Virus record (IMG/VR): IMGVR_UViG_3300024346_009227
Span: 52,975 to 116,974 of that record
Strand: one strand, 5' to 3'
DNA from: a virus
DNA: 64,000 bases
Part shown: positions 1 through 23,729 of the stretch, one piece after another
Layout of the letters: each line of letters starts with the position of its first letter
Numbering within the stretch: the stretch's first letter is position 1
The notes under the pieces: model-generated
What the model was told of the DNA's origin: nothing
What the model saw: only the letters and a program-made list of their open reading frames with translations
Database searches by the model: none
Program-made: the position numbers and the translations under genes

Positions 1-387
1 TGTAGAATCACAAGCTTCTAATGCTATGTTACCACTGATTCCATAATATAAAGTATGTGTGTAGTATACCGGTGGAGTAAATGTAAGATATCTTGTAAGA
101 GTTGCCCCAGTAATACCAGTAGGATAGTCTGCACCAAAAGTTATATTTGAGTACTGACTAAATACCCCTAATTGAAGAAATGATGACCCACCAGGAAAAA
201 TAACTTCATAACCATTAACTGTTGCACTACCTCCATCAAAGTTATAAGTTGAAATAACTTCTAATGTTCCACGATAGTAAAGTCTCCAAACAGTATTGCA
301 ATAACCATCTACAGTTAAAGTATTTCCACTAACGCTTCCGCAAATACTATTTCCGCTAACATAACTAAATGTTGGATTTGCTGGCAT
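1..387 (-). CDS. hypothetical tail-region protein (partial, runs off window)
   Basis: ATG at 387 overlaps the TAA of the upstream gene (TAATG coupling); reads MPANPTFSYVSGNS... and appears open through to ...ISGNIALEACDST at position 1; not in the ORF track. Confidence 0.7.
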   Translation of the reverse strand, partial: MPANPTFSYVSGNSICGSVSGNTLTVDGYCNTVWRLYYRGTLEVISTYNFDGGSATVNGYEVIFPGGSSFLQLGVFSQYSNITFGADYPTGITGATLTRYLTFTPPVYYTHTLYYGISGNIALEACDST

Positions 388-5108: not shown

Positions 5109-5116
5109 TTGTTCAC

Positions 5117-6373: not shown

Positions 6374-6382
6374 AAATCATTC

Positions 6383-7738
6383 CTAATATGGTCTAGGTAT
6401 TTGTGTGCTTATCAAATCAAAACTGGTAATGGTTGGTAAAGCTGGTTTTGAACCATCTGCCCATATAAATACTGTAGTTCTTGATATTTTTTTATTTTGT
6501 GCAGTAAAATTAATAGTATCAGATTCAATCATACTTCCTGCTGGTTGATATTGCAATGTGTTTGGAGTAGTCTCTGTTCCAACTCTTTCTATTGTGATAG
6601 ACATAGTTTTTGCTTTATTCATATCAATACTTTGAAATACTGGCCCCTTATCTCCATAGATAGTATTATGTATGACATAAGTCTTAAGGGCATCAGCTAA
6701 ATCTCCAAAGTAACTTACAGTTATTGTTTCATTTTTTACTCCAGTTGTTGTTGGTCTTTTTATATTTTCAATTTCATAGTTATAAGTAATTATTCCTTTT
6801 ACTTTATCATGTGTTTCTGAAAATGAAGTTATTGTTAATGCAAGATATTTAGTGTTTAAAGCACTCTTTACCGTTGTCCATAATGCCAATGCTTCTGTAT
6901 ATCTATTGCTTGGAGTTGATGTAGAAGATGAAGATAGACCAGTTATAGTTCCTTCTATAGAAAGCGTATCTCTTAATGTTTCATTAGATTGTTTGTCTGT
7001 AAGTGTTTGTTCATGGTGTGCTTGTGGTAATTGAGGAATAATTGAATTTTTTAATAAATCATTATGATAAGTTAAATTTATTTCAGCAGAGAATTCCCCA
7101 CCAAGTACATTGACACTATAATTAATTAATTTATTTGAAGGTGAAGCTTTTAAATAAGTATTTTTAGCAGCATCTTTTATATCTGTTGGAATAAGTTCGT
7201 TTATTTTTTTTAGAACTTCTGTTTTTGATGTTTCCCAACCATTTTTGCCATCAACATCTTTAGACTTACAAGAAATTTTATGGTTTACTTTTGTGAATCT
7301 TAAATCTTCATCGTTATAATCAACTGACCATGATTCATCTATATCTGAAGCGTTGGTTTTATCTGGTACTGATTTTGATCCAATGGTTACTGAATCTGCT
7401 TCCATTTCAATTGTGTAATCACAAAAATTAACCCAAATATCTTCTTTAAAATTTAGACTTTTAATTCTAGGAATAAATTTAATTGGTGAGCTTTTACCAT
7501 CTCTTGATTGAATCTCAAAATATGTTTTGTCTGTAAAAGCATTGACTTGTGCTATTATCGCTGCTTGTCTTGCAATAATGGCAGAGTGTCTTGCATCTAC
7601 AGATATAGCTTGACTTGGAACAATTTTTGCAGATACAGATATATTAAAAAGATATGTCTTTGCTTTTCCATTGTCATAAAATTGAACGCTTTCTTGCAAT
7701 GAAAATGTTTGAATTGGGTCTGATAATGTTCCAGCCAT
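6383..7738 (-). CDS. putative distal tail structural protein (paralog of 5117..6373)
   Basis: 451-aa ORF with the same shared motifs; synteny after TMP. Confidence 0.55.
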   Translation of the reverse strand: MAGTLSDPIQTFSLQESVQFYDNGKAKTYLFNISVSAKIVPSQAISVDARHSAIIARQAAIIAQVNAFTDKTYFEIQSRDGKSSPIKFIPRIKSLNFKEDIWVNFCDYTIEMEADSVTIGSKSVPDKTNASDIDESWSVDYNDEDLRFTKVNHKISCKSKDVDGKNGWETSKTEVLKKINELIPTDIKDAAKNTYLKASPSNKLINYSVNVLGGEFSAEINLTYHNDLLKNSIIPQLPQAHHEQTLTDKQSNETLRDTLSIEGTITGLSSSSTSTPSNRYTEALALWTTVKSALNTKYLALTITSFSETHDKVKGIITYNYEIENIKRPTTTGVKNETITVSYFGDLADALKTYVIHNTIYGDKGPVFQSIDMNKAKTMSITIERVGTETTPNTLQYQPAGSMIESDTINFTAQNKKISRTTVFIWADGSKPALPTITSFDLISTQIPRPY

Positions 7739-7740
7739 GT

Positions 7741-8892
7741 TTAATCCTCAAAGCCATGTGTATATAACTGCATGGTTTCATTAAATGGTTGATTTACTTC
7801 TGGAATAACTAACTCTATTGAATCAAAACAAACATCATTTGCATATATATTAAAATCAATACTATTAGTTATGGCAGAAGAAGCACCATAAGCTATTAAA
7901 GGCATATAATTCCAAGTTGCTTCAACATCTCTTTGTATAAACATCTCCATAGATGAACCATCTGGTATTGCATTGAATGTAGTTCCAAGACCAATTATAG
8001 TAATACTTAATGATTCATTAATAGATGCATACTGATTGCTCAAATAAAGATTTAAACTTTCAAAGTGTGATGGGTTTATTATATCTCCAGATATATATGT
8101 ATAAACAAACCCTGTTGTTAGTGCAGTATCATCTACCATCAAAAACAATTCTAAATTATTTTCAAAAAATGATTTTATATAAAGCTCTACACTATTTATT
8201 TGTTGGTCTATTGTTGATGAACGAATATTGAAATCAATAGATCCATCTGCATCAGTATATAAATACAAATTTTTTATGAATAAATCGGCTGATGATTCTA
8301 CAAATGCTTTTAAATAAAGTTCTTTATTGTCTTGATGTTCATTCCAATATTTTATAAATAAATTAATTGAATTTTGTGGAAATGATTTTAAATATAAATT
8401 TGTTTGTTCTTGCGTGTTGGCTTCTAAATACAAAGCTCTTGCACCAAAAAACATAGCTGTTGATTTTATATATAAAGAAACATTGTTGTCAAAATTTGAT
8501 TTTAAAAATAAATTCCTAAAATTAAAAAATGTTGATGGTGAAGGAGTGGGTGCAGGAGTTGTTGTGGTAGTGGTAGTTGTAGTGGTAGTTGAGGGTTGTG
8601 GGGTTGTTGGTTCGCCTGTTGTAGTAGTAGTTGTTTCTAATGTGATCGTTGGTGCTGGTGCTGAACCTAAAAATGGTAACCATCCTGATAGTGGCACATT
8701 TAATGGGTCATCTGAGGTGTTATAGTAATAAACATCTGAATACTGTTGAATAACCCATTGAGATACTATAATGTCATAAAACAACACATAGCTTGTATCT
8801 AAAGAGTTTCTATATGTAACAACATTGTAGTATTCAAATGTTCCATTAAAATTACCTCCGCTACCAGCACCAGATATAATATAATTTGCCAT
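7741..8892 (-). CDS. virion-associated hypothetical protein with Thr/Pro-rich linker
   Basis: 383-aa ORF directly after TMP; poly-Thr linker followed by short L(Y/F)(I/L)K repeats. Confidence 0.6.
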   Translation of the reverse strand: MANYIISGAGSGGNFNGTFEYYNVVTYRNSLDTSYVLFYDIIVSQWVIQQYSDVYYYNTSDDPLNVPLSGWLPFLGSAPAPTITLETTTTTTGEPTTPQPSTTTTTTTTTTTPAPTPSPSTFFNFRNLFLKSNFDNNVSLYIKSTAMFFGARALYLEANTQEQTNLYLKSFPQNSINLFIKYWNEHQDNKELYLKAFVESSADLFIKNLYLYTDADGSIDFNIRSSTIDQQINSVELYIKSFFENNLELFLMVDDTALTTGFVYTYISGDIINPSHFESLNLYLSNQYASINESLSITIIGLGTTFNAIPDGSSMEMFIQRDVEATWNYMPLIAYGASSAITNSIDFNIYANDVCFDSIELVIPEVNQPFNETMQLYTHGFED

Positions 8893-8903
8893 AATTTACC
8901 TTA

Positions 8904-11900
8904 CTATGAATTCATTTCATTTTTAAGTTGTTTACCTATCTGTGTAACTATCCATCCTTTTAGTTCTTCTGTCGCTTGTGTTACCGCTGTATATACACCT
9001 TCTGGATTAAAGTCAATATTTAAAGAAGCATTCAAATTGCCCATTACTTCTATATTTATTATTGATGGTATTTTATTAACTTGTGTTTGTAATGCTTCAG
9101 CATAAGCTTTAAATGTATCTATTTGTTCGCCAAAAGGCTTAAGGAATGTAGTTCCTAGTTTGTTTATTGCATCAGCTAATTGTGTAACGGAAGTCATATC
9201 TATTGCTGGAGTTGCGTTTTCTTGCTGATTTGGAACAAATGCCCCTCTTCTAGCATACATAACTCCACCATTAGACATATAACTAGTATTTCCATTTATA
9301 TGTTTTAATAAATTTAAATTTTTAGATGTTGATTCTCTATTTACCACAAACTCTCCTGGTGTGAGCATGGCAGGAACAGTGTCTGTACCTCTTGGTGTGA
9401 ATCCACCATCTGCAAAATAGTTTACCAGACCACCAGAATTATAACCTTTTCTTTTTGACATTTTGTTGGCAGAATCAGCAAAACTTCCAACTCCAGCATT
9501 AAATCTAGACGAAGAAGCTAATATGTTTTGTGATCCTTCCTTATTAGCATTTGCCCCACTCTTAAATGAATCGCCACTTTGAACAAATTTGTTTCCAACT
9601 CCAGATAATTTTCCAGTTAATTCATTTATTCCAGATTCTATTGGATCTACTTTCTTGCCACGAATATTTCCAACACTACCACCAGTTCTAAACCCAGTAA
9701 CTTCTTTGCCACTATTGATTGCATGTAACAGAGAATAATTTTTAGATGAAGCTTGTTTATTTACTACAAACTCACCTGGAGTCAACATAGCTGGAATAGT
9801 ATCTACATTGCCACCAGTACTATATGAACCTAGATCCATTCCAAGAAAACTTAATTTTTGTCTTTGTGGTTGTTGTGGTTGTTCCTGTCTCTTTTTGGCA
9901 AATGCTGCCATTTGACGATAACCACTAGGCATTTGTTCTTGTGGTTGTTGTTGCATCTGTTGCTGTGGAGCTTGATTAAAGAAGCTTTCTGCATAATTAC
10001 TTGATTGAAATGCTGGTTGAGCAACTTGAAGGTTTTGTGGTCGTTGTTGTGCCTGTTGTTGTGGCAACTTTCCTGCAAAATTACTTGGTCTTGGACCTGA
10101 TTGTAATGCTGCTAATGCTGCTTGTTGTTTTTGTTGTTGTGATTGTTGCTGAGGATTCTGATTAACTTGAAGTTGTGATCTAAATCTATTCGCTCTTTGT
10201 CGTTCTATAGCATTTCTTGCTAGTGTTGATCTTTGTTGTCTAGCCCAATCATCTTGAAGTTCTCTTTGTTTTTTTTCTTCCGCTTCTTTTTTAAGTTTCG
10301 CCCTTAAATATTCATCTGTTGCAAATGGGTTTGCTGGTGATAATGTTGTAAGTCCATTTTCCGCATAAATCAAACCACCTAAACTTGCATATGTACTACC
10401 AGATTCTTCTTCTTGTTGTTTTTTTTGTTCTTCTAGATATTCTTTGATTTGTTTTTTAAATTCATCAGAATTACTTTGTATTCCTGATTCATTTGCTTTT
10501 GCTGTTTTTAATGCGTTTACTTCTGCACCAGTAGCAGAAATATTTCCAAAGGGATTGTTGCCACCACGCATTCTAGACTGAACATCTCCAAGCATACCCA
10601 TTGCTGCTGATGTTACGCCTTCGCCACCAGGCTTAGTTGGATCTTGAAAAGATAGTGCTTGTTGAGCAGAAACGCCACCAGACCCAGTAGAAAATCCAGC
10701 TTGCGTATTATCAAAAAGACTACCAGTTCCATCATTAAATCTAGTGTTAGAAAACATTTGGAATGCATTGTTTTCAGCTTGATTTTTTGCTGCTATTCTA
10801 TTAGTTATGTCTGAAGTAGTAGCTTTTCCAATATTGTCAATATATCCTTCTTGATCAACAGTAAGAGATGTTTCTTCTTCACTGCCACTATAAGAACCTA
10901 AATTTGCTCTTCTTTTTAAGTATCCGCCATCATATAAATAACTTACTAATCCACCGCTTGCATATCCAAGTAATTTTTCCGTATTTGACTTAAAAAGATC
11001 TACGCCTTTATGCTGTACTTTTTCTTGAAGATAGTCTTTTCCAACATGTTTTGCTCCATGTAGAGCAGTCTCAAGTGATGGCTTCATTGCAAATTTTGAA
11101 ATCGCAGATATCCCTGCTTTTGCAAGTCCAGTCATCCCCATAGCATTAAAGACCATATCTGTTGCAGCATTATTGCTGTTGTCTTCATTTTGTAAAAATT
11201 GATTCTGTCTACGAGAGAAAGTTTGAGTTGCCCTATTAGAAGTAGATTCTAAATCATCTTTCCTATCTTGCATGTAAGTATATTTATCTTTATTTTTATC
11301 ATCAACTAAATATCTCGAATCTTCTTCGTATTTTTTTTGTCTATTCATTTTTTCATAAAATGCTTTTTTTCTTGCTTGTCCACCATCTTCTAAATAAACT
11401 ATTCCACCAGTAGCTGAATATCCAACATCTTTACCACTATTTATTGCACTTAATAAGTCACCATGTTTAGCAGTAGCAGAGGCATTTATTACAAACTCAC
11501 CTGGCGTAAGCATAGCTGGTACTGTATCTGTACCTTTAGGCTTAAAGAACGAAGGATCAGGATTAGGACTATGGCTAGGAACACCACCAGATGAAAGATA
11601 GCTTACCATTCCACCAGATGACATTTTTCTAGCTTGTCTTTGTCGTTCTATTTGTGCTGCTGCTTCTTCTCTAGTTATTTCACCCCTATTTAATCGACTT
11701 TCAACACTTAGTTCTCCATATTGTCCTTCAAATAATTGTTGCTCTTTGGTTGCTCTAGGAAGTCTAGCTGCAAGAGCACTCTGTTCTTTTTGTTCTTTTA
11801 TAATTGCAGCTTGAAATTCATTTGGTTCACCTTTAACCACATTTTTATTTTCTTCTGGTGCGATAGCTTTTGTTTCACCTTTCATTTGCTTCAATCTATT

Positions 11901-14900
11901 TTTCATTGCCTCTCTAGTTTTAGCATTTTCAATATTTGCAACATCTAAATTTCTTTTATAATCAATTTTTCTTTGTTTTTTACCATCAACATCTTCTTCT
12001 ACAACTACTGCTTTTGATGAAATAGTTGCATATCCTGGAGAATTACTAACAAGATTTAAAAAATCTTCTGTCGTAAAAAGACCTGGACCGTCTGCTGGAA
12101 ATGTAAAAGAGCTATTAGGACTTCCTAATGTTGGTCTATCTCCAGCTAATTGTTTTAATCCATCATTTGTATATGCTTGGTCTGCAAGTTCATTTCCATT
12201 AATGCTTGGAGCTACCGCAGCAAATTTTGCTAATGCAGCCATAGGATTTGAAAATGCAGTAGTAATTACATCAGTAGCTGCACTAAGTGTAGAAGAAAGA
12301 CTTTTATAAGGAGCAGCTATTCTCAATGCGGTATTTTTGGCAGACATAGAAACTTGACCTTTTCCAGTTGCTGCCTTTATAGTTGCATAAGCACCATCTT
12401 CACCTTCTGCAAAATCAATTCCAGAGAATGGTCTAACAATTTTTTGTGCTTTTCCTTCTTGTTTTTCGGAAAGCTTATCTAATAGATTAAAGTCTTTATT
12501 TCTTCCAATAGCACCTTCTAAGCTCTTTCTGCTTATACCACCAACATTTGCTGCTGCTGCATTAAGAACGCTCAACGCATTTATTTTTCCTTCTTCTATC
12601 GCCCTTACAACTAAAGGTATAGCATCTGGTCCAGCTTGTTTTACTTTTGCATCAACAAAACCCTTAGTGTCTTTTATGTTTGAGTATTGATCAATAAAGT
12701 CAAGAAGACCCTTACCACTTATTGCTAAAGATCTTGTGCTTGCCTGTTGTTTAAAGAAAGAACCAACAATTTCTTTTTGGAATGGAAGTATAAGTTTAGG
12801 ATTATCAAAGTCTTCTTTTGCCAAACTTCCTTTTTGTCCACTGTATAAATTATTGTATTCTTTTAAGCCTAAAGGTATTAATTGATTTGGATCTTTACCA
12901 ATTTCAGCAAATTCTTTTTTGTTTAATTCTTCGCCTTGATTTTTAGCAAAAATACCTTTTAGCTTTACCATTTTGCCAAGTATAGCACTAGCTTGCACTT
13001 CTCTTCTTAAACCTATTTGTGCTAATCTTCCTGCATCGCCCTGTCTCTTTAAGAAAAGCTCGTCTTCTTTTCCCATATCTGTAGCGACAAACTTCTCTCC
13101 AGTTCCTTCTTTTATTTGAGTAAGATAAGCCTTAGAGTCAACATAGCTCTTATCTATTTCTGGTCTATTTTGACCATAAGCATTTCTTAACTTTTCATTA
13201 GATGTTAATCCAATTTGGTTATAGCTTGTTCTTCTTAGCTTTAATATTTCTAATTCTGCTTTTTTCTTAGATTCTAATTCTTTATTCCCTCTTGCTGCAA
13301 GAACCTCATTCTCTGCCATTCTTATCTGCGTATCTATGGGCGTTGTGCCTTCTTCGTTTGCAATGTTGGCAACTATATTTTCTTGTTTCTTTTCTGAAAC
13401 AATGTCTTTCTTTTGTGCTTTTAAATTTGCTATTGTTGCAATATATTGTGGTATTTTAGCATCTATATCAGCATCTATACCTTTATTAGATTCAGCACCA
13501 ATATTTTTAAAGTAATCTGGATTTATTTGAAATTGATCTAAACTTTCTATTTTTTCTGGTATGTTATATTTTTTATTCCAATCAATTATTTTCTTTTCTT
13601 TTAAATAATTTTCTATTAATTCTTTTCTTGTTGGTATTTTCTTTTTTGATTCTTCTTCTAAAAGATTTACATCGGTGTCGGTATGTTTATCCCCATAATT
13701 CTTAATGCCTTTCCATTTTTCTCCACCGCTTTTCCAAGCAAGAGCTTTTTGTTTTTCTGGACCATTCCAAAAATAAGTATCATAAAAATCACCTTGTGAT
13801 CCACTAAAAGCATTTGATTTTTGTGCATCTCCATTGTGAAAAGTTGTAAATAAACCGCCCCTTACATTTTTTGAAAGCTTTGGATAATCATCTTCCTTAA
13901 TTGAATTTGTAGTTAAATCAGAAAAGTGATCTATAAAAGTTCCAGTAATCCTAGCATCTTTATATGCTCGATGTCCTCTTAGATAATTATCTAAATCAAA
14001 TACTCTTGCAACCTTTCTTTGTAATGGTCTAATAAGGCCAAATGCAGAAGTAACTTGTTGAAGTCCAGCACCAATCGTTCTACGCCATGTTGTATCAGAT
14101 GTAGCATCATTATCAAATTTTGCTTTTGTATGATCATCAACTGCATCTGGCCCATAATTTAACATTAAAGGTATAAGTTTTTCTTTAACTTTTTTTGCTT
14201 TATCTTTTTCTAAGTTTTCTGTAGATAAGCCTCCTTTATCACTAATTTCTTTTTTAATGCTTTCATATTCTTTGTTAAGTGTTGTTTTTGCTTCTTGTGA
14301 CGAACCTTCTTTTATTTGAATTTGTTTAAAGTTTGAAAAAATATTTCCAAAATCTTGAAGTGCTTCAAATCCACCATTTTCTTCAATTGTTTTTTTAACA
14401 TTAGGATTTTGAGAAAGTTGTCCACTAGATAAAGACGAAATAACTTCAGATAATATAGACAGAGATGTTTTTTCTCTATCTTCTGGTTTTACTATTGCAG
14501 AAGGAACATTGCTTAATGATGATTTTACAAGTGAGTCGTATTTTCCTTTTATGTTGCTTTTAATTGCTGCTGTTTTTTGTTCATTCGTTGGTCCTACTTG
14601 ATTCCATATATTCATCACTTCTTCTGATGCTTTTATTCTTTTATCTAATACTTCTCCACCTTCTGCTAAATATGATGTTTTTCCACTATTGATAGACTTT
14701 AACAAAGGCAAGTTTTGTTGTGCTGCACTTCTATTTACTACAAATTCTCCTGGTGTTAGCATTGCTGGAACAGTATCAGTTCCTCTTGGAGAAAATGCTT
14801 GACCGCCAATTGCAAATCCAATTGCTTGTGCAGGATTAACATTGGCGTTAACTGGAGCAATACCTTGTTGTTGTGCTGCTAATCCACTAATAGATGCAGA

Positions 14901-17900
14901 CAATCTATTAATATTAGCTGTAGCAGCATCTGCTGCTGCTGTAAGTTTTACTCCAATTCCTTGATTTAATTCACTAACTGCTGTAAGACTAGATTCAAAT
15001 TTTTCTGCATTTATTCCTTGGTCCTCTGCTTTATTTGCAATTTTAACCCCAAGAGAATTTGATCCTCCAAGTTCTTGTTCGGATTTACTTACTTTTTCTC
15101 TTGCATCTTTATTTGTTTGTTGCGTAACATTTTGTACGGCTTTTGTTATTGCATCTTGTATATTTCCACCTTCTGAAACTGTAGCTATTGCTTCTGATTG
15201 AACAGATTTGCTTTCTTTTCCTGATAATCCTATTTTTGATAATATTTCATTTAATGTATCTGATTTTGCAGCAATTTCTTTTGCTGCTTCTGGACCTTGT
15301 TTATTAGAAAATGAACTTCCTATTGATTTTTTAAATTCATCACCCCTTAAAGATTCTCCAACATTTGAATATTTTTTATCTGCTTCTTTTTTTTCTTCTC
15401 TTGCTTTTATTAAACTTGATATTTTTCCTTTGTTTGCTGTAACATCTTTTAGGTTTTCATCAGTTACTCCAGCTTCTCTAAGAAAACCACTTTTTTCTTG
15501 AACATCTTTTATTCTTGCAGACTTTTGAACTTCCCTATTTTTTTCATCTTGAACTTGACTCTTTTCCATGCCAGCAATAAATTTATCTAGGTTTGAATAA
15601 AATGTAGTGTTCTGTTTTGTCAACTGAGAAAAATAATCAGTCTGTAAACTTCTTTGATTTCCAATTAACTCTTGATTTGCTTTTACTTGTTCGTCATATA
15701 CTTTAGCTAATTTTCCAACCAACATATCTTCTTCTGGTTTCTTTTTTCCTAAACCAGTAGTATTACGCACAATATTGTCCGCAATATCTTTTCCAACTGG
15801 ACCAAAACTATCTAAAAATGCAAAAAGTGCCTTGTTTTGTTCAGAACTAAAATTACTTACATTTCCACCTTGAGCTTGTGCTTGTTTAAGTAATCCTTGT
15901 CCTTGAACTCTATCTCTTAATATTTTTTGTCTTTCTTTTGGATCTGCCGTTAAAAACTCTCTTCCTCTTTGAGTTTCATTATCTCTTTCTTGTCTTACTT
16001 GACCAAGCTTGCCTTCCAAAATAGCAAGATTGTTTGATTGATCTGCCAAGTTCTTTAATGACTCTTGCAAATTTGAAGCTTCTGATTTTAATTTAACTAA
16101 CTCAGATGCTGCACCTCTAAATGCAGCCCCACCACCTTCTGCACCAGAAGCATTCTGTACTTTTGGTTCTAACTCCCTAATTCTTTCTTGTGTTCTTTTT
16201 AGATTATCTCCGATTACTCTAGAGTCCTGTGCTTCTGCTCCTTTAGTTCCAGTAAGCCTTTCTTGATTTGTTCTAAAGCCCTGCATTTGTCTATCTACTG
16301 AAATCAAGTTCCCTGCTTGTGATGGCAAACCAGCATTTGTAGCAACAGTCTCTGCTGTAAACTTATCTCTCTGTAGTTTTGCACCTTCTAAGTTTTTAAA
16401 AGATTCGCCAATTTGTTTTTGTCTTTGAGCTAAATTTTCTAAACCACTAATATATTGATTACTTGCATTTTCTAATCTTTGACTTATATCTTTAGCTGCA
16501 TTTAAAAATGGGTCTTTTATATTACCAAGTAGTTTTTCTGCAACCTTAGATACATCGCCACCAGCTTCAGCAAGCAGCTTCGTGTATTCTTGTCCAGATA
16601 CATTTCCAGCAACAGAACTAACAACTCTTTCTGCTCCAGCCCCACTAATACCTTGAGCACTTAAAGCTTCTCTTAAACCAGAGGCTATTTGTATGGCTAT
16701 GTCCTGACCACCAACAGGATCTTCTATTGCACCAGCAAGTAATGACGGCAATGCTTGTGAGGCTGCATTAATTGCATTTCCTTGAGTCTTAAATTCATTG
16801 CCATAAGTTCCAAGTGAATCAGAAAGTTTAGAAACGGCAGAATTAAAAGAATTAAAGTCTGGAGTTGATTTTTGATCAAACTGATTAGAAATTCCAGTTA
16901 CTTTTGTTGATCCAATACCGCCACTAAAAAATGACTCATTTGTGCTTAACCTATTAGAGAAACTTTCTACCGAATTAGCAGCAGCAACAACTGCTTCTGA
17001 TAATAATGCCATAGAATTTATAGATCTTTGATTTACAGTTACTGCTTCTTTTTGAGTTTTTTCTAATTGTGCAGCTTTAAAAGAATCTTTCATTACTTTT
17101 ACAATTTCTTTTTTAACATCATCAAAGCTTACATTTCTTGCATTAGCAATTTTTTGTATTTGTGCATTATTAAATCCACCACCGCCACTAGTTAATTTGG
17201 TATCTAATGATGCTGCAAAATCTTTATAGTCTAATGTTCCAGCATTTCCACCAGCCTGTCTTACTGCACTAGAACCAAGTTGTTCGGCTTGTTTATTTAA
17301 AATATTCGTAAGTGGAACTATTTGTGCAGCACCAGCTTCTTTTTGACTTTTTGAATTTAATTCGTTGAATTTTTTAACATCAAATCCACCAAAACCGCCA
17401 CCAGTAATTCCAGATATTAGTCTGTCAAAACCATTTTTCTCTCCACCAGCTTCAACGAATGCTTTTCCAGCGTTTGCTTCAGTAATAATTTTTTGATTTG
17501 CTGCAATTGATTCGGCAATAGTATCATCAAAAGTTCTTAACCCAGTATTTAATTTATCAAATGTTCCTTGCAATCCTGTTAGTGCAGCACCTAACTTTAC
17601 TTCTCTTATTTGTGCCTCTGCTTCTTTAGTGCCATCAGCATAACCTTTTATTAATCCAACAAATGCACCTAAAGCACCGCCTACAAGAGTACCTACTGGC
17701 CCAAGTGCCGAAAAAGCGGTAGCAGTAGTAGCAGCATATGTTCCAGCTTTTTCAATAGCACCAGCAAATTGAAGTGTGGACCTATAAGCTTCTTGCTGTG
17801 CTTTATCTTCAACAACTACTCCTTGTTCATTTGCTTTTGCAAGAGAAGAAACTTCTGGTGCTCCTGCTCTCATTCCAGAAGCAAGTAAAGATCCACCAAC

Positions 17901-20900
17901 AGCAGCAGTTGTTATTCTATTGGCGTAACCAGATGCTCTATCTTGTTTAAACTGTCTTTCTCCCTCTGCACCAGCTTCAAAATCAGTTCGTTTTGAACCT
18001 ACAAGTCTTTGCCCAAAATCTTTTACCTTACCTTGGAATGTTAAATCGCCACTTTCTTTATAATCTCCACCTTTAATTAATTTTGATCCTAAAGACTTAT
18101 CTCCTGTTAGTTCTCCTTGTTTATTAAAAACTGCCCCTCTTTTTCCTTGAGCAAACTGCTTAGTGTATTGATCAGTCATAGACTGGATTTGCAATTCGCT
18201 AACAGGTTTTACTTCTTTTTGTGCTTTTGCTCTAAGTTGTTTTTCTGTTGCTGCTCTATATTCATTAACTATTCCACTTCTTATATCTTCTCTTTCGCTT
18301 TTTCTAGGGGCTTTACCATCATTTTGTTTAGCGTATTCTTTTTCTCTTTGTTTTGAAATTTGTTTTATTGAATCAGGTGTAGTTATTGGCTTTGTTTGTC
18401 CAATTGGCCTTCCTTTTTCATTTACAATCTCACCCTTTGCATTTACTTGGAATGATCTAGTGGCTTTTTCTCCTGATGCTTTTGCTGCTGCTTTTGCCGT
18501 TTCGGCTTTTTGTATATTTGCTTCTGCATCTTTTATAGATTGTTCTGTTTTTAAAATTTCATTTTGAACATTTAATTGTTTAGTTCCAACAGCAGTAATG
18601 CTATTTTCTATTGCCACTCTATTTTGAGCATTTGTATTTCTATCATTAAGAAGTTTTTGATAATCTTGATTTAACTTTAAAATTTGTGCATCTTCTTTTG
18701 ATGTGTCTACTGCCGTTCTTGCCTTAGTATCTCTTGCGTTTGTTGCTGTAGTCAAAGCACTTTCAGCTTTTGTTATTTTTGCATCTATTGCTTTTGATTT
18801 TAATGGTTTTTCAGCTTCCAATTTTTCTGCTTTCGCCTTATCGATTTCTTCCTGTTCTTTTTTTGTGTTAGGAACTTTGTTGTCTCTTGCAGTAGTAGCT
18901 TGCGTAAGAGCATCTTCTGCTCTCATTATTTTTGTGTCTATGTTTTTTGTTTTTAATGGCTTACTAGCTTTTGCTAATTCGTCTTTTGCTTTATCAATTT
19001 CTTCTTGTTCTTTTTTTGTGTTAGGTCCAGCAGCAGTTTTATCTGCCATCTGTTTTGTCAATACATCTCTTTGTCTTTTTGCTTCTGCTATTTGTGCATT
19101 CACAACTCTAACTGATTCACCAGCATCTAATTTAGATTTTTTTCTTGCTTCTAGAACAGAAATTCTTCCGGTAATATTTCCAACTTTTGCAGTTTCACTT
19201 TTTAAGTTTACTGGCTGTTGAGATTTTAATCTTTTTGCTTCTTCTGCTTCTGCAAGTCTTTGACTCGCTGCATCAATTTTTGCTTGCTTCGCTTCTTGCA
19301 TGTCCTTCTTTTTTTGCTTTAAATCATCGACTTTTTGTTTTGTCGAAACAACTCTTTTATTTTCTTGAGTTAAATCTACTGGTTGAGCTTCTTTTGTGAT
19401 TTTTGCTTGTTCTGCTGCTGCAATTCTTTGATCTGCTGCATCTATTTTTGCTTGTCTAGCCTCTTCCATGTCTTTCTTTTTATCTTTTAATTCATTTACT
19501 TTTGTTTGTGCAGATCCAACCCTTGTATTTTCTTTAGTTAAATCTTGTCCTGCTGCTGCTTTTGCATCTCTAGCAGCTACTATTGCTGTACCCTTTGCCC
19601 TTAATTCTAATTCAGCAGTATATGAAGCATCTGCTGCATCTGTATTCTTCTGAAGTGCTTCCGCTAAACTAGTTGCTTCTTTACCTAAAGTAGATAGTGT
19701 TTTACCAAAACCCTTTAGTTCTGTATTAAAAACACCAATATTTGATTTTTCTGCCGATATGTCTTGATCTGCTCTAGCAACATTTCCAATTGCTTGATTT
19801 GATGTTTGATTTTGAACTTTTATTTCACTTACAATTCTTGTGGCTTCTGCTTTTGCATCTTTTTTTGATATTTCTGGATCTGACTCCATTATTTGATCAA
19901 CTAATGTTAAAAGTATTTTCTTTAAATTGTTTGGGCTATTTAAAAATGTATCACTAACTATACTATTACCAACTTCACCACCTTTTTTAAATTTTGCAAA
20001 ACTATTCATTTGATGAAGTTTATTAGCACCAATTTTCTTTGCTTCGCTAGGGCTATATACATATTCACCTGGCGTGAGTAATGCAGGAACTTTACCACCA
20101 GATGCAAATTTGTGAGCATTAGCTAAATTATCAATGCCTATGCTATTAACTGAAGACTTTTTAATTACAAAAGAACCTTCGTCTAAATCCATTGGAACTG
20201 TGTCAGAATTGCCAGTTCCTGGTACTAATCCACCAGAAGCAAAACCCCTAGCTTTTTTTCTTTCTTCCATCATTTCTTTTGTGATTGCTACTGATTTTCC
20301 TAAAGTTGGATCTAATGCTAATGCAGGAAGTGGCTTGTATATATCTTCACTATATTTTTTAGATTCTTTGGTCTTTTTAGATGGTTTCCTTACCATTATT
20401 GGTGGGGCATCTCCTTTGCCTATGCTTTTACTAAATTTTCTTTCACGACTACGAGATTCCCTATTTGTCTCTTCTATTGATGCCTTTTTTATACCAAAAA
20501 TATCATTTCTTTTTTGTTCGAGATATTCGCCCCAAGATCTTTCTGGTGCAATTCTCCGAATATTTGTATTTATTGGTGTGATACCATCATTCATTAAAGA
20601 CAATTTTCTTAGTGCTTCCTCTTTATCTCTAGCGGGAATACTTCCTTTTTTACCCTGTTCGTCTTGATAAGAAAATCTAGCCAAACCTTTATTTTTTTCA
20701 TCTTCTGATTTTCTTGATTTTTCATACATCATACCGCCAACTGCTCCAGCACCAAATCCTAAAGTGCCACCAATAAATGCCCCCGGAATACCACCAAGAA
20801 GAGCACCACCAACAGCACCAGTAATACCTCCAGCAATAGCACCAGCGGGTCCAGCCAAAATTCCTTTAGCATCTCTTTCTTGTCTTTCTGATTCTTCTAT

Positions 20901-23729
20901 TGCAAGACTGTTACCTCTTTTTGGAGGTCTAGATGTATTAATGTCACCTGTGTCTGTCTCATTCATATTCCAATATCTTCTAAGTTCTTTCGCTCTTTCT
21001 TTTGCTTGATCTCTTCTGTCTTGTCTTTCTTGTAGTTTTTGTTGTGAGGCTTTTTTGGCAGCAACAAGCTTAAGAGATATAACAAAGTATCCCATCTGCC
21101 TAATCTTTTGACGCATTTCATCTTCTGTTGCAGCATCAACACTATCACGAACAATATTCCCTTTTGTATCTTTAGCAACAAACTTACCACTAGCAAACTT
21201 TTGTCTAACTACATCTCCACCATAAGCAAATTTTCTTTTTGCTTTAGCAGCTTTCTGTCTATCGGTATATGCAGAAGAAGCATTCATTGTTTTAGATAGT
21301 TCTTCTTTTTCTCTAAATTGACTAGCATTTCTAACTGCTTCAAAACTATCAAATCTATTTGGTCTGGTGAATGTTTCTGGATTTGTACCTTTCCATTGAC
21401 TTCTTGCTTCGTCTTTAGTTGGAGCATCGCCAAAGATAGACCTAAACATTTGGTCTTCTGACTGAGCATTATTTTTTGGCGGTGGTGGAGGTGAATTTGC
21501 AGTCTTTGGTCCACTTTGTGATCTTGCTTTTTTAAGATCACTCCGATCTTTTAAACGCTGAAAGGCAGCATTTACTTGTGCCATATTTTCGGGCAGACCG
21601 CCCCTATCTGAATGATGAATTAAAGCTGCTCTTCTAAATGCACTTGTTAGTTCTGGACCTTGCGGTATATAACCTTTAGTAAATCCAAGTATTTCTTCTG
21701 GATAAAGACCTTTAGGAAATGGTTTTGATCTTGCTTCATTTCCTTCCATGAATCTTTGACGATAGATTGGTCCACCAAACGCTTTTTTAGTAGGATCTTT
21801 TCCACCTATAGCTGTATTTATATCTTCAGCCTGACCTTCAGTTGCTCTTTTTCCTGTTCCATTATATGCTATCGCTACTTTAGATCTTATTAGCAGACCA
21901 GCTAATTTATTATCAGTAAACATTGGTCTACCATATTTATCTTGACCTTTACCTTTAAATAAATTAGTTAGTTTATCTGAATCTTGATAATTAGAAGCAG
22001 CGTATTTTTCAGTTATAGCCTTTGCCTGTTGACCTTTTTCTCTTTCTTTTTTTGTTCCTTTATTTAATTCATAAGCATCAACACCTTCTAGCCTTGTGCT
22101 TGTTCTAAATCTTGCTCTTGTTGGAACAACGCCTACATTTAAACTATCTCCATCAACTGTTTTGTTGTATTTTACACTGCTAACATCTCCACCCTTTAAA
22201 TACTTGCTTCTTCTGACTTGATTTCTAGGTACAACCATCTCACCTGGCTCAAGCAAAGCTGGCACTTTATCTCCAGTGCCACTTCCTGGCACTATACCCC
22301 CTGTTCTCATCCTAAGAAAACCGCCATCTGCTTTTTTATTTGTTCTTGCAGACGAACTATCTGCACCAGCACCCTTTACAAAACCTGTGGCAAAAGAGCC
22401 AATACTTTGACCAATTTTTACAGCAGCGAGAGCAGTAAATAATGGGAGTAAACCTTTAAGTGAATTGATTAATGACAAGACAGAAGTGGCAGCACCAATG
22501 AATGTATCAGCCAAACTTCTAAAGCCAGGGCTATTAACAATACTTCTACCAACCTCAAAAAAGCTTTCCTTCAACTTCTGTAGTTTTACAGCAAGAGCAT
22601 CCTGTGCCTGACCAGCATTAACAGCCAAAGACACACTACCAGCTTGAGCTACCCCTAATGCCTTCTGTGCAGTAGCAAATTCTTGAATAAGTGGGATAAC
22701 CTTACTGATCTGCCTATAACCACCTAATTGCTCAACAATGGCACTAAATCGGGGGTCTGTTGATCTTAATTCTGAAAGTCCAGAGGACAACCTTTTAATT
22801 GCTTCATATGGTCCAACAAACTGCTGTTCTAAGCCAACATCTCCTAAAGCCCTAGCTTCATCTGCGGTATATCTAAGATTTATACCAATTTCTTTTAGAG
22901 CATTAGCCGTATCATTTCTTTGTATTCGTGTAAATATAGTTCTTAAGCCAGTACCAATACTTTCGGCACTTTCTCTTGTCGTTTGTCGTACTGATGTAAA
23001 TAAGGCTATAAGCTCATTTAAATTACCACCAGCAGCTTTAAAAGCACCCCCTGTCTTTCTAATCGCCTCAATAATATCTGATGCTTCAACAGCAAACTCA
23101 CCCGCTACAGCATTAACAGAACCTAAAGCTGCACCAAGATCTCTTGCTTCAACTTTAAACTGCTTCATAATAGCAATAGCACCTTCAGTCGTATCTTTGA
23201 GGTTATCAAAGTTTGGTGCTAAAGCAGCTTGTGCCATTGCTTCTAAGGCATCTTTAGTTTCAGACAGAGTTAAGTTAGCTTGTTTTAAAACTACTGCTAC
23301 GCCAATTAAATCTTTACTGGAAACACCTAAATTTTTAGATAAGTTTGTTACTTGATCACCTACAGCAGCAACATCTTGTACTGTATCTGAAGAAACTTGT
23401 CTTAACCTAACCATTTCTCTATCAAAATCTACGGCAGCAGAAACAGCTTGTTTCATTGTGTTAGTAAAAGCAATGATTGAACCAGCAGTAACAGCGAATG
23501 CAGCAAATCTTTTAGCAGCAAAGCCAGCTTGCCTACCAAAATTTTCTATAGAATTAGTAACTTCAGAAAGCTGAGTTTTTAATGGAGTAAGAGAAGCAAA
23601 TGTTGCAGAATTTGTTCCTATTTTTAAACTGTTCACACTTCCTAATGTGCTATTTATTTGATTGGCTGCTGCTTTTAAAGCACCACTATTTACAGCAACA
23701 TTCAAATTGGCAGTCAAATTAAAAGCCAT
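8904..23729 (-). CDS. giant tail tape measure protein (TP901-type core) with multiple accessory domains
   Basis: 4941 aa; N-terminal TMP core (AVDFDREMVRLRQVS...LIALFTSVRQTTRESAESIGTGLRTIFTRIQ); Ala/Gly-rich helical stretches; position after tail tube and chaperones; repeated DTVPAMLTPGEFVV modules. Confidence 0.9.
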   Translation of the reverse strand: MAFNLTANLNVAVNSGALKAAANQINSTLGSVNSLKIGTNSATFASLTPLKTQLSEVTNSIENFGRQAGFAAKRFAAFAVTAGSIIAFTNTMKQAVSAAVDFDREMVRLRQVSSDTVQDVAAVGDQVTNLSKNLGVSSKDLIGVAVVLKQANLTLSETKDALEAMAQAALAPNFDNLKDTTEGAIAIMKQFKVEARDLGAALGSVNAVAGEFAVEASDIIEAIRKTGGAFKAAGGNLNELIALFTSVRQTTRESAESIGTGLRTIFTRIQRNDTANALKEIGINLRYTADEARALGDVGLEQQFVGPYEAIKRLSSGLSELRSTDPRFSAIVEQLGGYRQISKVIPLIQEFATAQKALGVAQAGSVSLAVNAGQAQDALAVKLQKLKESFFEVGRSIVNSPGFRSLADTFIGAATSVLSLINSLKGLLPLFTALAAVKIGQSIGSFATGFVKGAGADSSSARTNKKADGGFLRMRTGGIVPGSGTGDKVPALLEPGEMVVPRNQVRRSKYLKGGDVSSVKYNKTVDGDSLNVGVVPTRARFRTSTRLEGVDAYELNKGTKKEREKGQQAKAITEKYAASNYQDSDKLTNLFKGKGQDKYGRPMFTDNKLAGLLIRSKVAIAYNGTGKRATEGQAEDINTAIGGKDPTKKAFGGPIYRQRFMEGNEARSKPFPKGLYPEEILGFTKGYIPQGPELTSAFRRAALIHHSDRGGLPENMAQVNAAFQRLKDRSDLKKARSQSGPKTANSPPPPPKNNAQSEDQMFRSIFGDAPTKDEARSQWKGTNPETFTRPNRFDSFEAVRNASQFREKEELSKTMNASSAYTDRQKAAKAKRKFAYGGDVVRQKFASGKFVAKDTKGNIVRDSVDAATEDEMRQKIRQMGYFVISLKLVAAKKASQQKLQERQDRRDQAKERAKELRRYWNMNETDTGDINTSRPPKRGNSLAIEESERQERDAKGILAGPAGAIAGGITGAVGGALLGGIPGAFIGGTLGFGAGAVGGMMYEKSRKSEDEKNKGLARFSYQDEQGKKGSIPARDKEEALRKLSLMNDGITPINTNIRRIAPERSWGEYLEQKRNDIFGIKKASIEETNRESRSRERKFSKSIGKGDAPPIMVRKPSKKTKESKKYSEDIYKPLPALALDPTLGKSVAITKEMMEERKKARGFASGGLVPGTGNSDTVPMDLDEGSFVIKKSSVNSIGIDNLANAHKFASGGKVPALLTPGEYVYSPSEAKKIGANKLHQMNSFAKFKKGGEVGNSIVSDTFLNSPNNLKKILLTLVDQIMESDPEISKKDAKAEATRIVSEIKVQNQTSNQAIGNVARADQDISAEKSNIGVFNTELKGFGKTLSTLGKEATSLAEALQKNTDAADASYTAELELRAKGTAIVAARDAKAAAGQDLTKENTRVGSAQTKVNELKDKKKDMEEARQAKIDAADQRIAAAEQAKITKEAQPVDLTQENKRVVSTKQKVDDLKQKKKDMQEAKQAKIDAASQRLAEAEEAKRLKSQQPVNLKSETAKVGNITGRISVLEARKKSKLDAGESVRVVNAQIAEAKRQRDVLTKQMADKTAAGPNTKKEQEEIDKAKDELAKASKPLKTKNIDTKIMRAEDALTQATTARDNKVPNTKKEQEEIDKAKAEKLEAEKPLKSKAIDAKITKAESALTTATNARDTKARTAVDTSKEDAQILKLNQDYQKLLNDRNTNAQNRVAIENSITAVGTKQLNVQNEILKTEQSIKDAEANIQKAETAKAAAKASGEKATRSFQVNAKGEIVNEKGRPIGQTKPITTPDSIKQISKQREKEYAKQNDGKAPRKSEREDIRSGIVNEYRAATEKQLRAKAQKEVKPVSELQIQSMTDQYTKQFAQGKRGAVFNKQGELTGDKSLGSKLIKGGDYKESGDLTFQGKVKDFGQRLVGSKRTDFEAGAEGERQFKQDRASGYANRITTAAVGGSLLASGMRAGAPEVSSLAKANEQGVVVEDKAQQEAYRSTLQFAGAIEKAGTYAATTATAFSALGPVGTLVGGALGAFVGLIKGYADGTKEAEAQIREVKLGAALTGLQGTFDKLNTGLRTFDDTIAESIAANQKIITEANAGKAFVEAGGEKNGFDRLISGITGGGFGGFDVKKFNELNSKSQKEAGAAQIVPLTNILNKQAEQLGSSAVRQAGGNAGTLDYKDFAASLDTKLTSGGGGFNNAQIQKIANARNVSFDDVKKEIVKVMKDSFKAAQLEKTQKEAVTVNQRSINSMALLSEAVVAAANSVESFSNRLSTNESFFSGGIGSTKVTGISNQFDQKSTPDFNSFNSAVSKLSDSLGTYGNEFKTQGNAINAASQALPSLLAGAIEDPVGGQDIAIQIASGLREALSAQGISGAGAERVVSSVAGNVSGQEYTKLLAEAGGDVSKVAEKLLGNIKDPFLNAAKDISQRLENASNQYISGLENLAQRQKQIGESFKNLEGAKLQRDKFTAETVATNAGLPSQAGNLISVDRQMQGFRTNQERLTGTKGAEAQDSRVIGDNLKRTQERIRELEPKVQNASGAEGGGAAFRGAASELVKLKSEASNLQESLKNLADQSNNLAILEGKLGQVRQERDNETQRGREFLTADPKERQKILRDRVQGQGLLKQAQAQGGNVSNFSSEQNKALFAFLDSFGPVGKDIADNIVRNTTGLGKKKPEEDMLVGKLAKVYDEQVKANQELIGNQRSLQTDYFSQLTKQNTTFYSNLDKFIAGMEKSQVQDEKNREVQKSARIKDVQEKSGFLREAGVTDENLKDVTANKGKISSLIKAREEKKEADKKYSNVGESLRGDEFKKSIGSSFSNKQGPEAAKEIAAKSDTLNEILSKIGLSGKESKSVQSEAIATVSEGGNIQDAITKAVQNVTQQTNKDAREKVSKSEQELGGSNSLGVKIANKAEDQGINAEKFESSLTAVSELNQGIGVKLTAAADAATANINRLSASISGLAAQQQGIAPVNANVNPAQAIGFAIGGQAFSPRGTDTVPAMLTPGEFVVNRSAAQQNLPLLKSINSGKTSYLAEGGEVLDKRIKASEEVMNIWNQVGPTNEQKTAAIKSNIKGKYDSLVKSSLSNVPSAIVKPEDREKTSLSILSEVISSLSSGQLSQNPNVKKTIEENGGFEALQDFGNIFSNFKQIQIKEGSSQEAKTTLNKEYESIKKEISDKGGLSTENLEKDKAKKVKEKLIPLMLNYGPDAVDDHTKAKFDNDATSDTTWRRTIGAGLQQVTSAFGLIRPLQRKVARVFDLDNYLRGHRAYKDARITGTFIDHFSDLTTNSIKEDDYPKLSKNVRGGLFTTFHNGDAQKSNAFSGSQGDFYDTYFWNGPEKQKALAWKSGGEKWKGIKNYGDKHTDTDVNLLEEESKKKIPTRKELIENYLKEKKIIDWNKKYNIPEKIESLDQFQINPDYFKNIGAESNKGIDADIDAKIPQYIATIANLKAQKKDIVSEKKQENIVANIANEEGTTPIDTQIRMAENEVLAARGNKELESKKKAELEILKLRRTSYNQIGLTSNEKLRNAYGQNRPEIDKSYVDSKAYLTQIKEGTGEKFVATDMGKEDELFLKRQGDAGRLAQIGLRREVQASAILGKMVKLKGIFAKNQGEELNKKEFAEIGKDPNQLIPLGLKEYNNLYSGQKGSLAKEDFDNPKLILPFQKEIVGSFFKQQASTRSLAISGKGLLDFIDQYSNIKDTKGFVDAKVKQAGPDAIPLVVRAIEEGKINALSVLNAAAANVGGISRKSLEGAIGRNKDFNLLDKLSEKQEGKAQKIVRPFSGIDFAEGEDGAYATIKAATGKGQVSMSAKNTALRIAAPYKSLSSTLSAATDVITTAFSNPMAALAKFAAVAPSINGNELADQAYTNDGLKQLAGDRPTLGSPNSSFTFPADGPGLFTTEDFLNLVSNSPGYATISSKAVVVEEDVDGKKQRKIDYKRNLDVANIENAKTREAMKNRLKQMKGETKAIAPEENKNVVKGEPNEFQAAIIKEQKEQSALAARLPRATKEQQLFEGQYGELSVESRLNRGEITREEAAAQIERQRQARKMSSGGMVSYLSSGGVPSHSPNPDPSFFKPKGTDTVPAMLTPGEFVINASATAKHGDLLSAINSGKDVGYSATGGIVYLEDGGQARKKAFYEKMNRQKKYEEDSRYLVDDKNKDKYTYMQDRKDDLESTSNRATQTFSRRQNQFLQNEDNSNNAATDMVFNAMGMTGLAKAGISAISKFAMKPSLETALHGAKHVGKDYLQEKVQHKGVDLFKSNTEKLLGYASGGLVSYLYDGGYLKRRANLGSYSGSEEETSLTVDQEGYIDNIGKATTSDITNRIAAKNQAENNAFQMFSNTRFNDGTGSLFDNTQAGFSTGSGGVSAQQALSFQDPTKPGGEGVTSAAMGMLGDVQSRMRGGNNPFGNISATGAEVNALKTAKANESGIQSNSDEFKKQIKEYLEEQKKQQEEESGSTYASLGGLIYAENGLTTLSPANPFATDEYLRAKLKKEAEEKKQRELQDDWARQQRSTLARNAIERQRANRFRSQLQVNQNPQQQSQQQKQQAALAALQSGPRPSNFAGKLPQQQAQQRPQNLQVAQPAFQSSNYAESFFNQAPQQQMQQQPQEQMPSGYRQMAAFAKKRQEQPQQPQRQKLSFLGMDLGSYSTGGNVDTIPAMLTPGEFVVNKQASSKNYSLLHAINSGKEVTGFRTGGSVGNIRGKKVDPIESGINELTGKLSGVGNKFVQSGDSFKSGANANKEGSQNILASSSRFNAGVGSFADSANKMSKRKGYNSGGLVNYFADGGFTPRGTDTVPAMLTPGEFVVNRESTSKNLNLLKHINGNTSYMSNGGVMYARRGAFVPNQQENATPAIDMTSVTQLADAINKLGTTFLKPFGEQIDTFKAYAEALQTQVNKIPSIINIEVMGNLNASLNIDFNPEGVYTAVTQATEELKGWIVTQIGKQLKNEMNS

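Follow-up and report, generated by a model that had tools for sequence, protein, structure and literature searches.

The locus described here raises the question of whether a giant phage tail tape measure protein (TMP) is a plain ruler, a precursor that is cut into pieces, or a ruler that also carries enzymes. The window analyzed is a stretch of 64,000 nucleotides (positions 52,975 to 116,974) of the IMG/VR virus record IMGVR_UViG_3300024346_009227, which comprises 116,974 bases with a CheckV completeness of 78%. A single uninterrupted open reading frame (ORF) at window positions 8904..23729 encodes the 4,941-residue protein P0001. All coordinates below are window positions, and the gene and all of its segments lie on the minus strand. 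PhageMin_Tail (PF10145) matches residues 125-337 with an E value of 4.3e-24, and the PHROG tape measure families 28 (E 1.8e-23) and 167 match as well, in agreement with the preliminary description of this DNA, which had called the product a TMP. A word-based search retrieved 122 giant relatives of 2,717 to 7,574 residues. By its sequence, P0001 is thus a TMP of the TP901/PhageMin_Tail type. We favor, with a probability of roughly 0.6, the view that P0001 is a genuine tail-length ruler that doubles as an enzyme carrier, with cassettes that are exchanged at glycine-glycine (GG) joints.

P0001 contains seven copies of a module of the form ..GG..D[TK]VPA.L.PGE.V..GG, numbered 1, 2a, 2b, 3, 4, 5 and 6. 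The preliminary description had counted seven repeats, and the cores map to all seven nucleotide ranges given there. Matches to the core P..L..G[ES].V lie at residues 490, 1179, 1215, 2988, 4071, 4646 and 4786, the copy at residue 1179 being degenerate (VPMDLDEGSFV). Copy 1 comprises residues 466-515 (22185..22334; ADGG..MRTGG..DKVPALLEPGEMVV..YLKGG). Copies 2a (degenerate) and 2b stand in tandem at residues 1163-1251 (19977..20243), and copy 3 occupies residues 2972-3025 (14655..14816; FAIGG..TDTVPAMLTPGEFVVN..LLKSINSG..LAEGG). Copy 4, with doubled GG flanks, spans residues 4036-4117 (11379..11624); like 2a and 2b it was delimited by motif scan and copy alignment. Copy 5 lies at residues 4636-4684 (9678..9824), and copy 6, the seventh by the earlier count, at residues 4763-4822 (9264..9443). 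When the copies are aligned, [FY]xxGG is followed by a variable spacer, D[TK]VPA.L.PGE.V, a helix-prone stretch with LL..IN.G, and a second [FY]xxGG that is often doubled. The sequence LL..INSG, reported earlier to follow several copies, is present after copies 3, 4 and 5; LLKHINGN takes its place in copy 6.

The [FYML]xxGG motif occurs 21 times in P0001, compared with 5.26 +/- 2.21 times in 2,000 shuffled sequences (maximum 14). Phe, Tyr, Met or Leu precedes 21 of the 59 GG dipeptides at position -3, where composition predicts 14%, and this enrichment is limited to the TMP among 30 ORFs of the window. KAFGG, which has its Phe at position -2, is not among the 21. Every short motif listed in the preliminary description is present. 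Its proposal that these motifs sit at domain borders is borne out, the GG motifs being real cassette borders, but most of them belong to the modules themselves, as left and right flanks, and are not independent sites. Isolated junctions are found at residues 648-652, 834-838, 4256-4269 and around 4448, whereas the motifs at residues 1884, 2179 and 2267 look like chance occurrences.

The module is common well beyond this phage. At least one core match is present in 118 of 121 stored relatives, and a profile built from the seven copies retrieved 22,941 proteins at E <= 1e-3 from 1.84 billion representatives, 6,329 of them at E <= 1e-10 and 1,091 at E <= 1e-30. Nearly all of the best 150 matches are giants with 3 to 12 copies. 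Of 593 stretches on viral contigs that fit the pattern, 550 proved to be module relatives; 77 loci were kept, in which the TMP frames range from about 1,300 residues with one copy near the C-terminal end to about 6,000 residues with up to seven copies. Among cultured phages, 127 records (87 Gordonia, 9 Nodularia, others) have the module within a gene annotated as tape measure. Among PDB sequences, profile A1, the alignment of the P0001 module copies, finds the TMP of mycobacteriophage Douge twice (residues 963-1025 and 1412-1460, E 2e-5). The same profile aligns motif for motif with residues 728-785 of lambda gpH, as expected from the earlier statement that gpH carries a single related module near its C-terminus; taken alone, this match is weak (E 0.11, and 0.28 in a second search). 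No model of the module exists in the Pfam-A copy searched or in NCBIfam. By these profile searches, the module is a widespread but uncurated TMP element.

An alignment of 147 copies, drawn from this gene and 76 other loci, has no variation at the core residues P, L, G and V and at least 90% conservation at GG, D, T, V, A, M, T, P, E, F, L and N. The six best P0001 copies differ at many synonymous positions, with a mean DNA column identity of 70%. Since the copies use different codons, it is the protein sequence on which selection acts, and neither recent duplication nor gene conversion was retained as the source of the repeats. The possibility that the giant TMP is a concatenation of whole TMP units was also discarded, since internal similarity is confined to the modules (21-124 residues). 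No experimental structure of the module is available; the published Douge and lambda structures resolve only the last 32-42 residues of the TMP, which sit in the tail tip (PMC13033339, PMC12617516).

If the modules and their GG flanks were joints between exchangeable segments, homology between relatives should break at them. BLASTP against 119 relatives yielded 171 high-scoring segment pairs (HSPs) of at least 200 residues and at least 30% identity, with 164 internal ends. Half of these ends (82 of 164) fall at residues 500-539, at the end of module 1; a further 19 fall at residues 3020-3029, at the end of module 3, and 5 at residues 4260-4269, at the isolated double-GG junction. These three bins thus collect 106 of the 164 ends. 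The double-GG junction comprises residues 4256-4269 (10923..10964; YASGGLVSYLYDGG); collinear homology to P0003 and P0006 stops at residue 4262, and that to P0014 at residue 4269. Because the count leans toward conserved modules and the relatives are not independent, single cases were inspected.

P0011 is about 36% identical to P0001 overall, but a block of 95% identity begins precisely at the GG of KAFGG. Ten relatives have a common segment starting with ..GG|[PS][IV].RQRFM.G, in which a J-like segment directly follows the GG. Upstream of this shared GG, P0001 and P0003 have a nuclease cassette, P0007, P0010, P0013 and P0023 have three other cassette types between them, and P0004 and P0011 have two cassettes. 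P0009 has no cassette there, and the YVSGG of its module 1 is fused directly to SIYRQRFM. Whole cassettes that start or end exactly at GG thus distinguish the relatives, which bears out the earlier suggestion that the xxGG motifs act as insertion scaffolds.

In P0052 (E 3.8e-21) and P0054 (E 2.2e-13), an ART-PolyVal domain occupies residues 534-735, directly after module 1. This domain is tandemly doubled in P0052, each copy being closed by ..GG.I..[FR]..GG. In the same slot, P0069 has an ADPrib_exo_Tox domain at residues 588-734 (E 3.6e-10) with [FL]A.GGRVGMA.GG on both sides; [FYL]xxGG motifs bracket the domains of all three proteins. Four inspected cassettes with HExxH motifs, in P0236 (residue ~1071), P0163 (~1392), P0020 (~967) and P0069 (~863), are likewise bracketed by GG motifs. 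With a nuclease here and ADP-ribosyltransferases (ARTs) in relatives, the slot after module 1 is therefore, judged by these matches, a cargo position whose contents differ between relatives. At one related locus on a viral contig (L031:3-11095), the TMP coding sequence is spread over two or more ORFs; the first stops inside an HExxH cassette, and the last has the final module and C-terminal tail. A real split could not be distinguished there from an assembly or sequencing error, and the locus was not used.

The first cassette of P0001 (residues 516-653; 21771..22184) ends in KAFGG and matches the endonuclease family phrog_452 (E 3.1e-7). A profile of this segment with nine relatives (A7) matched staphylococcal thermonuclease in the PDB with an E value of 6e-8 over profile positions 10-109, nearly the whole domain. 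All ten nuclease-cassette sequences share DGD, R, D, E and R without exception; these residues align to DGD, R, D, E and GR of staphylococcal nuclease (SNase), its metal-binding and catalytic positions. The segment, called nuclease-like in the preliminary description, is thus by profile comparison an SNase-fold domain with a complete set of catalytic residues. The family profile was needed for this match; TAL-repeat matches returned by a single-sequence PDB search were spurious.

The second cassette (residues 654-838; 21216..21770) ends in FAYGG and comprises a helical hairpin followed by a Pro-rich tail. By sequence it matches J-domains weakly (Pfam DnaJ, E 0.053; DnaJ2 in the PDB, E 0.069). 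An AlphaFold (AF2) model computed with 11 relatives shows a helix-loop-helix at residues 21-80 of the cassette with a predicted local distance difference test score (pLDDT) of 75-86, and the first 18 Foldseek matches to this model are all J-domain proteins. The best of them, Tim14, has an E value of 0.02, a probability of 1.00 and a TM score of 0.69 on the target; none reaches E 0.001. The loop tripeptide is HSD in P0001, P0003, P0004, P0009 and P0011, and HPD in P0007, P0008, P0010, P0013, P0022 and P0023. Pfam did not report DnaJ on the whole P0007 and P0013 sequences although both have HPD. The predicted fold thus supports the J-like label given earlier, and residues ~675-735 are modeled as a J-domain-like helix II-loop-helix III hairpin in which HSD replaces HPD. 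A search for shorter or stand-alone homologues of residues 516-838 returned four proteins, all of them TMPs.

Under the carrier reading, the phage would have a genome of about 150 kb and a very long tail. The conserved N-terminal core and a tip-binding C-terminal end would frame a chain of segments, which would be connected by the short linear module [FY]xxGG..G.D.VPA.L.PGEFVV..LL..IN.G..[FY]xxGG or by minimal joints. The latter would consist of [FYL]xxGG, in many cases as a doublet or with.[IV].RQ[RK]F..G behind it, and both kinds of joint would be kept by selection at the protein level. Between the joints, related phages would gain, lose and exchange cassettes exactly at GG, the cargo here being the SNase-fold nuclease and the HSD J-domain, with ARTs and HExxH domains in the same slots of relatives. 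During ejection the TMP precedes the DNA and forms the channel (PMC12617516). The cassettes would accordingly leave the tail before the DNA and arrive, at infection, in the envelope or the cytoplasm of the host, where they would act, perhaps still tethered to the ruler. Such tethered action has been proposed for the TMP-fused RNA polymerase of phage P23-45, an enzyme that works at infection and would act fused to the TMP pore (PMC10770324). Glycine joints would permit unfolded threading through the tube and independent refolding of each cassette. The full module would serve binding or register rather than catalysis, and this reading allows for cleavage at the joints without requiring it.

The length of the tail gives a measure of how much of the chain counts as ruler. 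Nodularia phage vB_NpeS-2AV2 has a tail of 795 nm (PMC6293099) and a TMP of 3,404 residues with two full modules and one partial one, which corresponds to 0.23 nm per residue. At this value the whole chain, cassettes included, is therefore probably extended in the tube, which would agree with glycine joints that let each cassette refold by itself once ejected. By analogy, 0.15-0.23 nm per residue would give P0001 a tail of about 0.74-1.15 µm, comparable to that of Thermus phages with a TMP of 5,002 residues (PMC10770324, PMC10034513).

The same figures would suit a plain ruler, in which every residue of the Nodularia TMP contributes to length. In that reading, the modules would be assembly stations, such as chaperone-binding or lumen-binding sites or register clamps of the trimer, spaced one per 750-1,060 residues, and the cassettes would be mostly filler with an incidental enzyme ancestry. 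Copy number does scale with TMP length (r = 0.58, one copy per 750-1,060 residues) among 246 stored proteins starting with Met, a set chosen by similarity to P0001 or to the module and not a random sample. The outer copies also keep fixed positions, the first starting at a median of residue 513 and the last ending at a median of 144 residues from the C-terminus. Most of P0001 is K/A/E-rich and free of domain matches, and the module is predicted to behave as a linear motif. However, the catalytic and metal-binding residues kept in ten of ten nuclease cassettes, the ART domains that relatives retain above the Pfam cut-offs, and the HPD tripeptide are not expected of decaying filler. The 17-residue core is moreover near-identical even between phages with no detectable similarity in their other tail proteins, and binding to fast-evolving chaperones is therefore hard to invoke. 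We regard a ruler with inert filler as improbable, and as the least probable of the three readings.

A different use of the joints was put forward in the preliminary description, in which the xxGG motifs are processing sites and the module recognizes or cleaves them. The TMP would be cut during maturation or after ejection, releasing its enzymes, with the module as recognition element or protease. Some observations point this way. GG is invariant on both module flanks, and cassettes terminate precisely at it. The lambda module begins at residue 728 of 853, near where the gpH cut must fall. Several cysteine and JAB peptidase families cleave after Gly-Gly. In phage T5, the cut in the TMP pb2 separates the enzymatic domain from the hydrophobic stretch. 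This cut lies after R1127, at what is given as the single TMP cleavage site mapped in print, and thus follows Arg, not GG (PMC10038345). Lambda gpH is matured to gpH* and gpHC; according to PMC12617516, neither the cut site nor the protease is known.

AlphaFold on the 147 aligned copies gave a pLDDT of 67, a predicted TM score of 0.30 and no strands, so that the module is not predicted to fold autonomously. Foldseek of this model against the PDB returned one meaningless row and no structural match, and PDB profile searches (A1, A2) gave no peptidase match to the module, only TMPs and chance rows. The module resembles the S24/S26 peptidase strand 'GDSM.P.L..GD.V.V', but a Ser-Lys peptidase identity of this kind was dropped, since no LexA or signal peptidase chain was found at E <= 10 and no fold matched. 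The claim that the module cleaves or recognizes xxGG is thus not supported by fold prediction, structure comparison or profile searches.

A protease encoded elsewhere was sought as well. The contig, 117 kb at 78% completeness, has no match at E <= 1 to Prok-JAB, Peptidase_C48 or Peptidase_C39, three families that cut after Gly-Gly, although divergent enzymes could escape this search. The 79 ORFs examined downstream of TMP genes (3 in the window, 76 at related loci) yielded no match to a peptidase family, and no TMP-flanking ORF has a peptidase match in PHROG or Pfam. A protease at the tail tip, moreover, would not be expected to reach sites along a tube of about 1 µm. Embedded zincin peptidases have been proposed to process polyvalent proteins (PMC5512222). 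HExxH motifs are present in 92 of 255 stored relatives and in recurrent contexts (YHE[ML]THQ in 23, HE[STA]FH.IQ in 12), where a rough composition estimate predicts far fewer than one chance occurrence per protein. These HExxH cassettes could be the zincin peptidases expected under the polyvalent-protein model, but Pfam does not recognize them. P0001 has 16 His in 4,941 residues, no Cys and no HExxH, and thus contains no embedded zincin-like peptidase.

Nothing in these data shows that P0001 is cut into pieces. We consider it unlikely that it is a polyprotein of this kind, although this reading ranks above the plain ruler. Equally doubtful is its wider form, in which xxGG joints would be general TMP maturation sites, the module would determine the lambda gpH cut, and the giants would be cut at up to about 20 joints to free their enzymes. 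If it were true, the tail would be a programmable multi-effector injector with cassettes exchanged like cartridges, and a free nuclease and a DnaK-directed J-domain (ARTs in relatives) would reach the host before the DNA.

Several points also weigh against the carrier reading. The data contain no demonstration that any cassette is delivered or active, and the role of the full module is an inference, with an AlphaFold model of low confidence. A J-domain that lacks the HPD proline may not stimulate DnaK, and SNase-type nucleases require millimolar Ca2+, which disfavors action in the cytoplasm. Residues 1252-2971 and 3026-4035, which make up most of the protein, have no assigned fold and may be plain ruler. 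HSPs tend to stop behind a conserved module as an effect of alignment alone, and the 119 relatives do not count as independent cases. Finally, the P0011 block has its right edge off-motif near residue 888, and not at FAYGG (834-838). The comparison of related TMPs for swaps exactly at xxGG, called for in the preliminary description, found cassettes that change at GG, but not at both edges in every case.

The remainder of P0001 was divided by conservation and composition. The N-terminal core (residues 1-465; 22335..23729), which includes PF10145 (125-337), is common to 225 of 250 stored relatives, and is at most 26% identical to SPbeta-type TMPs. A hydrophobicity scan found hydrophobic stretches, of the kind by which a TMP would form its channel, at residues 70-88, 406-444, 956-994 and 2005-2030. 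The third of these forms a glycine-zipper hydrophobic stretch within the segment at residues 839-1162 (20244..21215), which has a weak Pfam match to Gly-zipper_Omp (E 0.05). Two small F.Y..D..G....G.I.A...A...L...G motifs flank this zipper at residues ~848-887 and ~1015-1055 (20566-21186), and the 95%-identical P0011 block ends right after the first of them. The PilC-like domain proposed earlier, sought at residues ~848-1055, was not recovered; T2SSF (PF00482) was not matched at E <= 10 when all six frames of the contig were scanned, and a Pfam scan of residues 839-1165 gave nothing PilC-like.

A long K/A/E-rich ruler segment, identified by composition and hydrophobicity, spans residues 1252-2971 (14817..19976) and includes the second glycine zipper at residues 2005-2030; residues 1900-2972 are conserved in 45 of 250 relatives. 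The variable segment at residues 3026-4035 (11625..14654) is at least half covered in only 4 of 250 relatives. An unknown globular domain, as listed in the preliminary description, was not established for residues 3026-4036; Pfam gave no match and ESM Atlas only scores of up to 0.86 to unnamed clusters. The Q-rich segment of the preliminary description is present at residues 4452-4640 (28% Q+N) and precedes module copy 5. The C-terminal tail (residues 4823-4941; 8904..9263) is conserved in 14 of 250 relatives and, by analogy with lambda and Douge, presumably binds the tail tip. A precomputed label, PF28597.1, which is absent from the Pfam copy searched, is attached to P0001 and five relatives; the proteins noted with it are P0002, P0003, P0004, P0031, P0036 and P0255.

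The TMP gene lies within a co-oriented structural block shared with the large terminase and two collagen-like fiber proteins. The collagen-like proteins, of 2,845 residues (39184-47721, minus strand) and 761 residues (36888-39173, minus strand), match dozens of PHROG tail-fiber and collagen-like families with E values down to 0, and the G+C fraction rises from about 0.33 to 0.40-0.43 across this stretch. None of the ten ORFs flanking the TMP gene has a PHROG match, and a glycosyltransferase is their sole Pfam match above cut-off. Four ORFs 3' of the TMP gene (387-8892, minus strand; 383, 451, 418 and 1,573 residues) likewise have no PHROG match and no Pfam match above cut-off. The distal tail and tip proteins putatively encoded here are thus unrecognizable by sequence. 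A family-2 glycosyltransferase is encoded inside the structural block (29531-31330, minus strand, E 5e-12), and a nucleotide-sugar epimerase (phrog_540, E 3e-66) adjoins the terminase (56927-57976, minus strand). These two genes hint at glycosylated virion proteins. No close DNA match was found among cultured phages.

Each ingredient of the carrier reading has a precedent, in muralytic TMP motifs, a TMP-fused polymerase, polyvalent proteins and TMP-like effectors of contractile injection systems (CIS). Lambda gpH (PDB 8IYK) resembles P0001 in having a [FY]xxGG..GEFV..[FY]xxGG module after a glycine-rich hydrophobic stretch, like module 1 of P0001, and it is ejected and builds a trans-envelope channel (PMC12617516). 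The last P0001 copy ends 119 residues before the C-terminus, within the lambda-type range of about 70-150 residues. In contrast, gpH has one copy instead of seven, 853 residues instead of 4,941, and no embedded enzyme domains. The 5,002-residue TMP gp96 of Thermus phage P23-45 is a giant like P0001; it comes from a phage with a very long tail and brings a working enzyme, an N-terminal virion RNA polymerase, into the host, for which its authors speak of 'a previously unsuspected association' (PMC10770324). It differs, by its description rather than by a sequence comparison, in having a single N-terminal enzyme in place of a row of internal cassettes, and the available part of that paper describes neither a repeated junction module nor cassette exchange and makes no mention of proteolysis (PMC10770324).

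Polyvalent proteins, like P0001, combine several unrelated domains in one injected polypeptide, and ART-PolyVal, found in relatives of P0001, was defined there (Iyer et al. 2017, PMC5512222). They differ in being mostly packaged in the head, and no GG-bounded junction module is described for them in the accessible text (PMC5512222); the main text of PMC5512222 contains zero mentions of tape measure. T5 pb2 and mycobacteriophage TMPs have muralytic motifs inside the TMP scaffold, comparable to the enzyme cassettes of P0001, and Sle1, one of the TMP-related CIS effectors, has swappable functional domains (PMC13277306). These types have one cell-wall or C-terminal domain, whereas the P0001 family has several cytoplasm-type domains between repeated joints. 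In the literature searched, which leaves out most subscription journals, we found no description of a conserved, lambda-related junction module that both punctuates giant TMPs and delimits exchangeable enzyme cassettes, nor of GG-bounded cassettes in TMPs.

The cassette borders offer natural splice points at which TMP-borne domains may be studied or exchanged in laboratory phages. The joint also adjoins the unexplained cut of lambda gpH, and the 50-year-old question of where and how this cut is made gains a specific, testable motif. If P0001 is indeed a ruler that doubles as an enzyme carrier, its cargo slots would be marked by a short conserved joint open to sequence searches, and 22,941 representative proteins match the module. 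TMPs would then be a major delivery route, so far overlooked, for ready-made enzymes of long-tailed phages.

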